A stretch of DNA of 52,091 nt, the filler included, from Catajapyx aquilonaris (taxonomy: Eukaryota), in NCBI GenBank assembly GCA_000934665.2. It is 2 parts of 2 records of this genome, joined end to end, with 100 filler letters (N's around TTAATTAATTAA, not from the genome) between each part and the next. Parts side by side here need not be neighbours in the genome. Positions count along the whole stretch, not along the records: positions 26,106 to 52,091 come from JYFJ02005277.1; 1 more part is not named here. One strand, written 5' to 3'. Shown in pieces: positions 27,412 through 50,014 of this stretch; position 1 is the first letter of the stretch; the number at the start of each line of letters is the position of its first letter. The notes below the pieces were generated by a model. It did no database searches. It was not told the origin of the DNA and saw nothing but the letters and a program-made list of their open reading frames with translations. The translations under genes and the position numbers were made by a program.

Positions 27412-27860
27412 ATGAACCATCGGAGTCTCCTGATCCTTATTATTACAGCGAGGTGTGCAAGTGGAGTCATTAAACTCAGTCAGCTGGGTTTGACGGAGGG
27501 GATAAGATAAATGATGTAATTCGATGGAAGATAATATGTAAAAATGTCCTGCAGCAATATATGTAATTATTTCTACTACTTTACATGCGGCTGGGCATGT
27601 TAACAAGCTTCCCGAAATGATGCGGCTCATCTCTTCAGTTGCAATAAGTAACATTAAAAAAATAATATGTAACGTAAAATTTCCACATAACCAAAGAAAT
27701 CATGCTACATCAAAGTATACATATTCACCCCAATCACGAGGACCATATGACATTTTTTATGAATGCAAATGATTTGATTTTTCGGACACATGTAGTCAGC
27801 TAGACGATGTGATACCAGGAGAGCCCCTAAGTCCTGACGACTGTGTTAAGCCTCCAGGAG
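27412..27860 (+). pseudogene. Truncated astacin-ShK paralogue (exons 1-2 only)
   Basis: Exon 1 27412-27501 MNHRSLLILIITARCASGVIKLSQLGLTEG with donor changed from GT to AT (ataaga versus gtaaga in paralogues). Exon 2 from 27800 LDDVIPGEPLSPDDC. No downstream exons seen before gene 1. Confidence 0.75.
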
Positions 27861-27895
27861 TAAAGTTCTCGCTAACTAACAACAGCAGGACCGAT

Positions 27896-27918
27896 TGTGT
27901 GTGTGTGTGTGTGTGTGT
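27896..27918. repeat. (TG)n microsatellite
   Basis: Direct reading. Confidence 0.9.
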
Positions 27919-44902: not shown

Positions 44903-45374
44903 GAGCAGAACCAATAACCAAGACACTGTATGTCTTGCATACGTCAATAGTATATAGAATAATTAGACGTTTTTAACATGGCAACCGGTTACCATGCAAC
45001 ATTTTTTCATGTGTTCATGTGCGTACTCGTAAACCATTGCAGTAAAAATTAAAATACAATGTGGTCAGGTGTGTAACTTGCACTTCTTGCTGACATGCTT
45101 TTAATAACCCTGCAGTAATTACAAAGTCAGAGACGTAAAATGTCCCAGAATAAAATTATTGTCCTCTGGTGTAGCTTATTTAGGCAAGATAGTTCTGTGT
45201 AACGCGTGGGAGTCCTTATGACAGTGTTCATTACGTCAATCTTGAATCATTCGCATTATCGCTATTTTCACAATATGTAGTGCTATTGTGTCTAATGTTA
45301 TACCCAAGACAATGCATTGCTTGTACGTACTCAGAAAGAGTGCAAAATAAATGCCAGGTGTTGTCCATTTTACA

Positions 45375-48300
45375 ATGAACCATTGGAATCTGCTTGTTAT
45401 TGTTGCCGGTATTGCAGCGAGATGTTCAAGTGAGAATCTGGACCTAGATGTTGACATGTTGGAAGATGAGGTAAGATATTTGCAATTATCTTTGTAACAA
45501 TCACTACACCATGGCCAGTAAACATCGTGTTGGAACTAACAATGCACAAGATACTAAAAAATAAAGCATGAGAACAGAAGTAGGCCTATAATTTATCCAG
45601 ATTAGACACTAAAAATGATATCTTTATGGCCATAAATAGCTTATACTTTTTTTCTTTCTTCAATGAATATTTATGATAATAACAAGATTCCTGGAGAGCC
45701 GCTCAATCCGGACGACTGTGATGATTCATCACAAGAAGAACCGAGTGAGTATTTCACTCATGGGTGAATAGTGAAGAAACCTGCGATTTCATGTCACAGA
45801 GTCTAATTTCTGGACTTAATATAACATCTGAAAATATGATAAGAAATCAGATTGCACGTTGCTGAATACGGGTCACATAACAAATATGTAATGAGAAAAT
45901 TATTTCATATTTTTATTTAGGCCACAAAGCGTGAAAAGTCACTTCCGTGGCGTGTCCCAATCTACACTTTCGTAATTTTGTCGATTTTTATGCAAGTAGC
46001 TATTACGTAAGATGTTATGTCACTTTTTAAATTAGAGTAATGGAGAAAGGAATACTGAAGGTAAAGGCTAGTGCATTCTTTGTCATGAGGTTCCAAATTG
46101 CATCGATTTTATTGCAGTTTTTTTTTTTTGGAAATGAAATTGCACCTTTTTTCACTATTGATGCTCATACGTGTGCTACCAGAAAACAAATTAACCATTG
46201 CAGTCTTGGACTTGACAAGTTATAACATTCATGCGAAGTAATTTATTATTACGTACTTCGAGTAACTGCATTTTCACTCCATGAAAGTAGCCTTTTGTAC
46301 AGCATATACTCATAAGTGGCGGCACAATAAGACAGAACAATAATATATTGGCAATAAAAAAAAGAAATTCTGACTAATGTGGGCCCATAAAAAACGAGAT
46401 AAGTTAATCTGTTTCCTATAAAAGAATATGGATCAAGCAGCTCATGCACATGTACTTTTATAGTTTCTTCTTTACACTTGCCTAAATATGAAACAATAAT
46501 TGTGTCAGATTATAATAAATAACCTTTTTACATTCTAGCAATCACATGGGATGCTACTGACGACTACCTGTTTCTAGACGACATCGTAGACTATACTTTG
46601 GAAGTAAGAATACGTTATTGACAACAACATAAACAACCTCGGGCTCGGCCATATTTGAGAGTATACCGCAAAACGGGGTGAGATTGTGCCAACGCATTTT
46701 AAGGGACAACAGTGCGCCCTACGCCCTACTCGTCATTTCCAACGTTATCATCCCTAAATGTAGTGAAACATATCTAAATTCGCTAGTTTACGCCTGCTGT
46801 CACTGTTAACCAAAAATGTGCTGGCACAATATCACCCCACCTGGCACAATCTCACGCCGTTTTACGGTATTGTATTATTTTAAATTTAATGTTTAAACCG
46901 TGATGAATTATGGATTTTGAGAGCTATAGAAACTGAGAGCATCCCGATGAAACTTGCGCAAGACATAACTTTTTGAAAGCACCATTCTTTTACAGTATCG
47001 AAATGCTGTAAACAATAGTAGAAGATGGCCAAACGGAATCATTCCCTACGAAGTCGACGCAAATTTTAGTAAGTCGGAATCTGAATCATATCGTTCCATT
47101 CAATAATTGTATGGACTCTCATTTTCTAACATTTTCGACTCATATTGTATTTCAGCTAGTGGACAGCGCTCCATTTTATGCCAATCGATGGCAATATTTC
47201 ACAATTTAAGTTGCATCCGATTCAAACCCCGAACTACTGAGGCTGCATTTCTCAAAATTCAGGCAGCAGATGGACGGTAAATGTACTTAATATTTTACAG
47301 TTATTCACAGAACGGTTTATGTGTGAACTCCTGGACCACCAGCACTTTATCTAGACGTGTAATTTGGTATAGGTCATGTTAAAACGCCCTGTGTTTGAGC
47401 TGAATTTGTCCTGCCTTTTATTGTTTGAATTAGACCAATGTTTCTTGCCAGGGTATGTCGGAGTACTGTTGGCTACTGGGAGTCTTATCCTATGTTCACT
47501 GATCTGAGCCCGAGATGTTTCCAAAACGGAACACATATACTGGTACATGAGTTGATGCACGCTGTTGGGTTTTCCCACGAGCAAAATCGGCCAGACAGAG
47601 ACTGCTACGTTAAAATTAACTACTGGGTCATTTCACCAGGTACGTATTGCACGATCCTACTTCGAATGAATTAAATTATTACTGTACAGAACACTTAACA
47701 TTGCTACTGTGTTGTTACGGAATAACCTAAATGACTGCCGCTATTGGCACAGTATTACATATAATCACCCACTACTACTAAATGTTTCCAGATAATTTCG
47801 GTAACTTCCTTGTTTGCAAATGGGGCGATTGTCAGACACTCAACACTCCATACGACTTCAGTAAGTACAGGTCTCGATTAAATTGAATTTTTCTATTTAC
47901 AGTGGCCTTCTTTTCCTGTGTTTCTCAGTTGATCTATTTGAATGTAATTTTTTTAAATAACTGTTTCGACTTCATCATGTTATTTCGGTTATTTTTCCAG
48001 ATTTTGCTATTTGTCTTCTTAGTCATGAGTTCTTTATCAATATTTCAGATTCGATATTGCACTATTCCCCTTTCGCATTTTCAATATTTCCGTTTCCTTC
48101 AATAGTAATTCTAGTCCCAGGTGTTGAATGGGAACAGGGAACGAAATTAAGCGAGGTAAGCTTATTGTTGTCATCATGAGGCAACCTTGACGGGATAGTC
48201 CAGGTGCTAAGGGACACATGTGACCCAAACTTTGCATTTTGTGACAAAAGTATGAAACTCGGTACACTTGTTCTTTGGACACTTCCGAACATATCTGGAC

Positions 48301-50014
48301 GTGGAACCACGATGACCCACCGAATGCAAGCTCATTATTCAAATATAAACACATGTTGCACATTCTGTTAGATATGGCAACCCTGCGATAGTGCCCTCCA
48401 TCGGGGTGGGTCATCGTGGTTCCACGTCCAGATATGATCAGAAGTGTCCAAACCGAGTTTCATACTTTTGTCACAAAATGCAAAGTTCAAGCCCTTAGCA
48501 CCCGGACTAGGACGAAAATTATGTTGGTGATTGGTGATCACAATGTTTTCTTAAAAGTTTTAAGTCATTAAATTTGACACCCCTCTTGTATATTCTCAGA
48601 ATGATATTTTAAAAATTAATCGACTTTACGAATGTGACAAAGGAGAATCACAGCTGACACCAGAATCTCTAGGTATAGTGGCCGTTTATATACATTTTGG
48701 GGGCTATCCAGGGGTTCATGTTAAGTCATCATCCATTAAAACCCATACCACAATTTTTTAAATGTTGCAGGACAGTGTTACAGTATTATAATGAATAGGT
48801 TTTTGAATATTATCTGCCTCTTGTAACAGAAGTTGAATATTTTGCAGAGTTGCTGCTGAAGTGCAAAGATTTGCACAGCAAGTGCAAACAATTTCAAAAC
48901 GAAGGAGCCTGTGAGGATGAAAACCAAAATTGGATGTCCATAAATTGTCGACAAACGTGTGGATTATGCAGTAAGTTACTCGTTATGTCATGAAAATATT
49001 ATAACTAATCATCTTATCATTAGTCGTCATTTGTGGTCAAAGGATACATCTTCTTTTACTTGTAATTTGCGAGGGGATTGTGAGAACAATTATGTAGGCC
49101 TACTTGTATAGTACCTACACTGCTCTGCATGCTGAATAATTTTTATCACTTCACGTTGCAACATTATAATGACCCATTTCAGAAGGTGAATGCGTCGATA
49201 TGAATCCAAAATGTCCGGAATGGGCCAATAACGGATCGTGCACAAATATTATGTCTCCGTACATGATGGTTGTATGCCCAAAAAGCTGCAATGCTTGTGG
49301 TAAAGGTGTGCATTTTCAGACTTACACATTCTAACGGTTCAGGAAATTATTTCTAATGGCTGGCTGGTAATGGCCATTTCTGCCACAACTGCATTATTTG
49401 ACTATTGAGTATTACATATTGTTATTATTACTACTTCAGACGCTCCATGCAGCATCGATATTGCTGATAACTGCCAGCAGTTATCAGAAGCAGGAGGGTG
49501 TGACAGAATGCCTGACTACATGGCCGTTTACTGCCGACAAAGCTGCTCTGACCGTAAGTACAATGCGAGTTAAATTCTCATGGCCAAGAATATTATGACT
49601 AATATATATGTATACCCTACTACGGAGATTCATCGCATATTTAGTACCTTTGCAATTAATTTGTAACTGGAAATTTTAAGTAAATTGGATATTACATATA
49701 GCCTGCATTGTCATAATCTATAGCTTATTCGTTTTGCCTTTCAGAATTCTGTGAGAAGATACCAACAAACGGTACAGATTGTAAAGGACAAGGGTGCGAA
49801 GTACAACCCATGGTTAGCTTCTTTGGTGTGTACACAAATTGATCACATAATGCTAAACTACGAAAATAATTCATATATCCTTAATCAGGTTTCCTCAAAT
49901 ACACCAAATATTTATAAAATTTTGCTTTGATGCATTTCAGAAAGGATCATTACAAAACTCAAGATATTTTCTCGAAATAATCCAGACGTCACCGGTATCG
50001 AAGTTGCAATCTAA
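45375..50014 (+). CDS. Astacin-ShKx3 metalloprotease, gene 4 (about 454 aa; Met-turn SILHY)
   Basis: Exons 45375-45470, 45687-45744, 46539-46603, 46996-47068, 47156-47276, 47452-47639, 47792-47860, 48049-48155, 48600-48672, 48848-48970, 49183-49305, 49440-49553, 49745-49825, 49941-50014; 1365 nt in frame. [25 protein letters not shown] at 50090-50095. If the last intron is retained the stop is at 49842. Confidence 0.92.
46666..46867. mobile_element. TA-target (Tc1/pogo-like) MITE in gene 4 intron 3
   Basis: TIRs CCGCAAAACGGGGTGAGATTGTGCCA / TGGCACAATCTCACGCCGTTTTACGG, TA TSD; empty site in gene 3 intron 3 (about 41760-41770). Confidence 0.85.
48196..48509. mobile_element. Foldback MITE with TAG..CTA ends and 3-bp TSD in gene 4 intron 8
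   Basis: TAGTCCAGGTGCTAAGGG / CCCTTAGCACCCGGACTA termini, long internal inverted arms, GGA duplicated (48193-48195, 48510-48512); empty site in gene 3 (about 43455). Confidence 0.85.

Follow-up and report, generated by a model that had tools for sequence, protein, structure and literature searches.

Proteins that join an astacin metalloprotease to ShK modules (ShKT-astacins) have been listed for Penaeus and Daphnia, their expression being described as chiefly in the digestive tract or barrier epithelia (PMC9848320). The salmon louse has eight labial gland astacins with one, two or four copies of the ShK domain, mostly lacking the Lys-Tyr dyad according to the part cited (PMC10828956), and its genome holds 125 ShK matches, a number called extreme for arthropods, compared to 10 in Daphnia pulex (bioRxiv 2021.03.15.435234, in part). 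In one spider, 46 astacin paralogues serve digestion (PMC5013568), and proteases of the same M12A family have diversified in centipede venoms (PMC6878950), as far as the cited parts of these papers go. Here we describe a tandem array of four astacin-ShK genes (A to D) of Catajapyx aquilonaris (assembly GCA_000934665.2), lying at positions 27,412 to 50,014 of the 52,091-nucleotide stretch of DNA that was analysed (the window). Judging by their sequence, the four genes very probably encode active secreted astacin-ShK proteases. They belong to an 11-gene clade whose catalytic domain, but not its ShK block, carries a signal of positive selection.

A six-frame scan of the window found four zinc motifs and paired ShK-like cysteine patterns, all on the + strand. 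Splicing by coordinates gave four open frames of 454–470 amino acids (Table 1); all 51 introns are GT-AG and every gene has the same phase series, 0,1,0,1,2,1,1,0,1,1,1,1,(1), which bears out the original prediction of four intact genes sharing intron positions. The gene C model was reproduced by a spliced aligner, our own code written for paralogues. Pfam Astacin (PF01400) scored above cut-off in the zinc exon of each gene and Pfam ShK (PF01549) in 12 of 12 of exons 10–12, while the Cys-loop exon of gene C had no Pfam match. A signal peptide is predicted by hydrophobicity (hydrophobic 9-mer of 2.3–3.4 near the N-terminus) and is followed by an acidic propeptide that ends at Arg-Asn. The predicted order of signal peptide, propeptide, astacin domain and three ShK domains therefore holds in A to D, whereas the Cys loop is absent from B and the amphipathic tail is marginal in D. 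Gene B also lacks intron 13, and its tail is one exon of a different type. Pairwise protein identity is 48–75%, with D and C 75% identical; an origin as assembly artefact or alleles is ruled out by these values and by the tandem arrangement on one contig. Overall dN/dS (the ratio of nonsynonymous to synonymous rates) is 0.42–0.55 in the six window pairs, so the genes have been maintained, and open frames together with dN/dS under 0.6 rule out a pseudogene array.

All four proteins carry the HExxHxxGxxH zinc motif, followed by the family Glu and RxDRD. At the Met-turn, Tyr is kept in all four, while Met occurs in A and C and is replaced by Leu in B and D. The four cysteines of the two core disulfides (bonds predicted) align in all ten intact genes of the clade. 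By catalytic features read from sequence, the proteins are members of M12A and would work like the arthropod ShK-astacins. Two relic copies accompany the four genes, as had been predicted. The first consists of exons 1–2 only, has both donor sites damaged or lost, and shares 93% column identity with the 5' end of the paralogue C1701_5; the second is a lone copy of exon 2.

We searched the whole genome (285.6 Mb in 20,583 contigs) with the zinc exon and found at least 29 places, of which 28 were modelled. The 29th, on contig C3373, was left unmodelled and reads as what we take to be a tolloid-type gene. Eleven of the 28 modelled astacins have the build seen in the window (four in the window, six on contig C1701 and one on C7948); ten are intact, and the eleventh is interrupted by an in-frame stop. 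The same set of genes came out on top when the third ShK exon served as query. Among the other modelled astacins, eight have three ShK domains (partial models), four have two, and none was found in five; ShK domains are thus carried by 23 of 28, and the genome holds at least 55 PF01549 matches. In quick catalytic-domain trees, built without bootstrap and without springtail, dipluran or water-flea rows, the 11 genes form one group, with support of 99 (70 rows) and 96 (44 rows) in the Shimodaira–Hasegawa-like approximate likelihood ratio test (SH-aLRT). A long branch separates 26 of 27 astacins of this genome from every database row (SH-aLRT 98 with 70 rows and 90 with 44), although the best database matches of the window genes are proteins of the decapod/myriapod type. 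Partial models were left out, one from the 70-row tree and three from the 44-row tree. The local expansion that had been proposed is upheld by these data, and so is a distinct subfamily of 11 genes (SH-aLRT 96–99), seven of which lie on two other contigs.

Outside the clade, a second group comprises eight astacin genes with three ShK domains (C2008, C2956:1400-3900 and C4703; SH-aLRT 97–98); two have Thr at the Met-turn, and their N- and C-termini are only partly modelled. Zinc or catalytic residues are altered in six of the 28 modelled paralogues. The catalytic Glu is missing from five (C2956 near 7600, 14100 and 18800; C2505:3500; C6334:5900), three of which also lack zinc His residues, with frames open in the modelled parts; in C2956 near 2000, Arg replaces the third His. 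An Asn-codon microsatellite of uncertain coding status lies at C1701:31880-31931, where propeptide exon 3 of C1701_5 ends. The host, an apparent arthropod in the original prediction, is indeed an arthropod, since its genome yields 66 cuticle R&R matches. Searches of the genome for odorant receptors and odorant-binding proteins gave one match each, the former reading as a gustatory-type receptor and the latter weak; taken together they are a weak hint that the host may be a hexapod other than an insect.

To measure selection we applied site models, in our own codon-model code, to the ten intact genes. For the catalytic domain, twice the log-likelihood difference (2dL) was 36.6 between M1a and M2a (omega 2.9 at 17% of sites; p about 1e-8) and 35.3 between M8a and M8. 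In contrast, no positive selection was detected in the ShK block of the same ten genes (2dL 0). The catalytic domains of C and D differ with a dN/dS of 0.80, their ShK blocks with one of 0.15, and in six pairs among four young paralogues the ratio is 0.98–1.65. The signal persisted in all four reduced sets, with 2dL of 37.5 without gap-near columns, 36.8 with other codon frequencies, 29.3 without the recombinant pair and 18.9 with six genes, and the observed value exceeds all 14 null simulations, seven plain and seven two-tree (maxima 4.9 and 7.1). These results support the rapid divergence that had been predicted. Recurrent sites (149, 159, 165, 215 and 218 in gene C numbering) fall, by alignment, within strand beta4, on either side of it and in the C-terminal subdomain. 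Strand beta4 frames the active-site cleft (PMC9848320 section 2.1, the part cited). Modules have also been exchanged: gene B is a mosaic, nearest to A through the catalytic domain (68–84% in DNA) and nearest to C1701_5 over exons 9 to 12 (82–92%).

All four window genes share a 16-base element about 150 bases before their start, where 0.13 would be expected, with what we take to be a CRE-like core. Only six exact matches occur in the 285.6 Mb, all before clade genes. Because the pattern was derived from the clade genes themselves, the finding is that the element was kept while synonymous sites drifted to dS 0.75–0.9. It fits the co-regulation implied in the prediction that the family may serve a single secretory tissue.

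The propeptides differ from those described before. FxGDI, the one motif common to animal astacin propeptides according to the section cited (PMC9848320 section 2.1), occurs in none of the 11 clade genes. Most of them have instead an Asp pair, in an acidic DDI segment, 10–11 residues before the Arg-Asn site; one paralogue outside the clade has this acidic motif as well. In Limulus pLAST, the switch residue is Asp38 relative to a mature N-terminus at Asn49 (PMC9629494 section 3.2, the part cited). Since the Asp pair of the clade sits where pLAST has Asp38, a shifted aspartate switch is the simpler reading, and such a switch may survive in another propeptide motif. A second propeptide motif, the anchor G-x-PL-x-x-x-D, ends in Cys in all 11 clade genes but in Phe in the five other paralogues where it was found (17 examined). 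The 19 database proteins that have this motif all combine Phe with an Ala on the backing helix, a position taken by Cys in 11 of 11 clade genes. Strict pairing of the two cysteines was rejected, as C2008_5 and C2008_6 have the helix Cys but retain Phe. In the AlphaFold model of Penaeus P0253, the anchor motif is a confident island (block score 84 in the predicted local distance difference test) within a low-confidence propeptide, which makes docking on the enzyme probable. Ahead of the Met-turn, the clade and most paralogues in this genome have a two-Cys loop, seen in one of 160 database rows.

At the other end of the protein, the clade has a C-terminal tail of 33–48 residues, mostly a two-Cys loop followed by an amphipathic helix. 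When hydrophobic moments of nine genes were compared with 1,000 shuffles each, 0–83 shuffles reached the observed value (none for C, 10 for B, 20 for A and a marginal 83 for D). A second tail type is common to B, C1701_1 and C1701_2. In the ESM Atlas, the zinc exon matches astacin clusters, and the B tail matches only unnamed clusters with low recognition. A membrane-spanning or glycosylphosphatidylinositol-anchored tail was rejected: the tail regions of A and B have no hydrophobic 19-mer above 0.95, and the best hydrophobic stretches of C and D fall in the catalytic domain.

Taken together, we regard it as an evenly balanced proposition that these proteins are secreted M12A zymogens, a genome-specific offshoot of the arthropod 'nas-4-like' type, diversified in substrate and most likely used in feeding. 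The proenzyme would be secreted and held latent by the acidic DDI segment in place of the lost FxGDI, and activated by a cut after the Arg of the Arg-Asn site. The ShK modules and the amphipathic tail would serve as binding, surface-anchoring or oligomerising accessories rather than blocking channels in free form. Enzymes of differing substrate preference could then have arisen by tandem duplication, exchange of ShK blocks and positive selection at the cleft rim, and be co-expressed from the shared upstream element; their most likely use would be the digestion of foreign protein in a gut or salivary secretion. Foreign substrates are favoured because they best account for selection at the cleft, and feeding because it is the use most often documented for such radiations, in spider digestion (PMC5013568) and the louse gland, as the cited parts describe them. 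By this analogy, we put the feeding role itself at slightly less than even.

Several points weigh against this proposal. The tissue is argued from analogy alone; no RNA match was listed for 40900-45000, which counts neither for nor against expression. Positive selection and co-regulation would equally fit defence, venom or reproductive proteins. With the four window genes alone, 2dL falls to a weak 7.2 (p 0.03 and 0.007); the codon models were run in code of our own, and tests of this kind can be inflated by gene conversion. The trees are quick ones that lack bootstrap and springtail, dipluran and water-flea rows. Finally, B and D have Leu in place of the Met-turn Met, as do two other clade genes (4 of 11), a change tolerated in MMP-2 and harmful in an Erwinia protease (PMC1266349, in the part cited).

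Of the three roles named in the original prediction (venom, digestion or defence), digestion is thus favoured. A barrier or antimicrobial defence, in which proteases released onto the cuticle, the lining of the gut or the ducts of glands counter microbes and parasites while the cationic amphipathic tail binds microbial membranes, is rather unlikely. It would draw on the net charge of +1 to +4 and high hydrophobic moment of the tail helices and on the selected cleft-rim sites, and an antimicrobial role has been proposed for the louse gland proteins (PMC10828956), as has a protective one for ShKT-astacins generally (PMC9848320), in the parts cited. However, the louse role is itself only suggested, and the A and B tails are merely mildly cationic. 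Venom, or an injected salivary toxin, would combine spreading-factor proteases with ShK modules hitting prey potassium channels. Expansion, positive selection and extra cysteines are, as we understand it, typical of venom families, M12A has diversified in centipede venoms (PMC6878950, in part), and the at least 55 ShK matches here compare with the 10 of Daphnia pulex and the 125 of the salmon louse (bioRxiv 2021.03.15.435234, in part). Nevertheless, this role finds no specific support and we consider it quite improbable: the ShK block shows no positive selection and is strongly constrained between C and D, non-venomous decapods have the same core order, and the host has no known venom gland. 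Moreover, an adjacent Lys-aromatic pair, our stand-in for the Lys-Tyr/Phe dyad that we take to mark ShK-type potassium-channel toxins, occurs in none of the 11 ShK domains caught by pattern, a crude test that missed the third domain of B.

Reproductive proteases, processing seminal fluid, spermatophore or egg coat, rank just after venom and are likewise improbable. Astacins occur in insect seminal fluid, and co-regulated tandem copies under positive selection are, we believe, typical of seminal proteins; the six paralogues with altered zinc or catalytic residues would also be common in such families. Yet the known arthropod ShK-bearing members have been reported from labial and tegumental glands, in the part cited (PMC10828956). 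The least probable role, and a very unlikely one, is moulting, hatching or matrix remodelling, with the cuticle or egg shell of the animal itself as substrate. Hatching enzymes, themselves astacins, are the top solved-structure matches, but PDB ranking depends on which structures have been determined, the catalytic domains and the fish row fall into separate groups in the trees, and self substrates offer little cause for positive selection in the cleft. Beyond roles, it is conceivable, though unlikely, that the clade represents the first animal astacins with a rebuilt latency. The new propeptide Cys, after loss of FxGDI, would either ligate zinc (a cysteine switch) or bond to the backing-helix Cys, tethering the propeptide after cleavage and making activation redox-dependent; the two-Cys loop and heptad helix would hold the enzymes in oligomers or fix them to membranes, and an undescribed gland of a non-insect hexapod, predatory or defensive in use, would have the family as its main protease arsenal. 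To our knowledge, a cysteine switch in astacins has been proven so far only in bacterial myroilysin. The loss of FxGDI with the paired gain of cysteines offers a route to a structural test of a different latency mechanism.

Table 1. Genes, relic copies and shared upstream elements of the array (window positions).
Feature	Position	Strand	Exons	Length	Zinc exon	Met-turn	ShK exons	Cys loop	Tail	Remarks
Relic 1	27412..27858	+	1-2 only							Subfamily gene; no later exons
Upstream element of gene A	29923..29938	+		16 bases
Gene A	30074..34563	+	14	455 aa	31774-31967	SIMHY	33492-33614, 33794-33913, 34109-34222	34390-34461	34502-34563 (helix)	Spliced by coordinates; signal / pro / astacin / 3xShK / Cys loop / helix tail
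Relic 2	about 35148..35225	+	2 only							Two frameshifting insertions; ends approximate
Upstream element of gene B	36200..36215	+
Gene B	36334..40495	+	13	456 aa	37714-37910	SILHY	39252-40129	none	40386-40495	Single-exon tail
Upstream element of gene C	40815..40830	+								2 mismatches
Gene C	40961..44902	+	14	470 aa	42298-42485	SIMHY	43721-44471	44630-44710	44829-44902
Upstream element of gene D	45232..45247	+
Gene D	45375..50014	+	14	454 aa	47452-47639	SILHY	48848-49553	49745-49825	49941-50014

The window joins two unrelated contigs, C3064 and C3065, through a spacer at 26006-26105 (N44, a 12-base linker, N44), and genes to its left are therefore not shown to be neighbours of the array. 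The first 94 bases of C3065 (window 26106-26199) are identical to C1701:30700-30793, just upstream of C1701_5; the two arrays may therefore branch here, and may represent a single cluster or two versions of the same locus. At 26204-27165 lies a foldback element of 962 bases (self inverted repeat, 84%), with about 20 near-full-length copies elsewhere (86–93%) among 40 candidates scored. Insertions resembling miniature inverted-repeat transposable elements lie at 10228-10534, 21706-23055, 23593-24113, 24462-25678, 32159-32551 and 42806-43125, two of them in introns of A and C. On C3064, a Rab21 gene (709-2633, +; Pfam Ras) has no close relative among its matches, the best named ones reaching 60–63% over the last exon and the springtail Orchesella 55%. 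Exons of a Ser/Gly-rich protein occupy 7300-21000 (-); the protein carries an RRSTG motif, and its C-terminal exon is coiled-coil-like. Two of its long frames gave no Pfam match, and we take it to resemble MYPT/PRKG1-interacting proteins.

To place the family among known astacins, we used a profile search (best 120 of 1,309 proteins) and a comparison set of 163 astacin-like proteins, 160 of which were parsed. The top matches of A to D are decapod or unnamed astacins with three to five ShK domains, at 32–39% over about 400 residues. Exactly three ShK domains follow the catalytic domain in 25 of the 160 parsed proteins; apart from the decapod ones, which end close to the last ShK Cys, five others have 56–86 extra residues, which are Cys-rich and unlike the clade tail. 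As sole query, the zinc exon found no close relative among 48 candidates scored, and the frame spanning exon 8, intron and exon 9 of gene B gave two weak matches against 50%-identity representatives. The literature within our scope, which excluded most subscription journals and supplements possibly listing hexapods, described neither this clade nor any hexapod astacin-ShK expansion or animal astacin without FxGDI. The original prediction named cnidarians and nematodes for astacin-ShK fusions and proposed that the full architecture may be undescribed. A restriction of such fusions to those two groups, or a new domain order, finds no support: crustacean ShK-astacins are published (PMC9848320 and PMC10828956, in the parts cited), the best matches are decapod, and the core order is thus already known in arthropods.

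The closest described proteins are decapod 'zinc metalloproteinase nas-4-like' astacins, an automatic database label (Penaeus indicus P0253, Cherax P0242, Procambarus P0243, Panulirus P0235 and Palaemon P0249). These proteins of 450–480 amino acids have the same signal, propeptide, astacin and three-ShK order and share the anchor motif with the clade; a millipede protein, P0255, has two ShK domains. Likeness extends to the third ShK only, so that a full-length match to a described subfamily was found in part: the trees show no one-to-one orthology, and the decapod proteins end at or within four residues of the last ShK Cys, without a tail. They also keep FxGDI, the anchor Phe and the backing-helix Ala and lack the two-Cys loop before the Met-turn, whereas the window genes carry the extra loop and a Cys at each of the two positions, and lack FxGDI. 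The window proteins share the zinc motif, family Glu, RxDRD, the Tyr of the Met-turn, two core disulfides and an Asn or Ala mature N-terminus with crayfish astacin, Limulus pLAST and meprin beta (MEROPS M12A, PF01400). All three of these use as their aspartate switch the FxGDI motif that the window proteins lack, and B and D differ further by Leu at the Met-turn. Spider digestive astacins (PMC5013568) and centipede venom M12A proteases (PMC6878950) are likewise lineage-specific radiations in predatory arthropods; compared by description only, the cited parts mention no ShK domains or tail. The salmon louse LsLGA1-8, also a lineage-specific, secreted and gland-expressed astacin-ShK expansion, have no member with three ShK domains and no tail described in the part cited (PMC10828956). 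What is new here is the 11-gene clade with its tail, its lack of FxGDI, its propeptide Phe-to-Cys change, its upstream element, its module exchange and its catalytic-domain selection, which is seen in the protease but not in the toxin-like modules and so bears on the role of ShK domains fused to enzymes. As it stands, this is a well-supported gene-family story and not a new system: a second large arthropod ShK-astacin radiation beside that of the salmon louse and, as far as can be told, independent of it.

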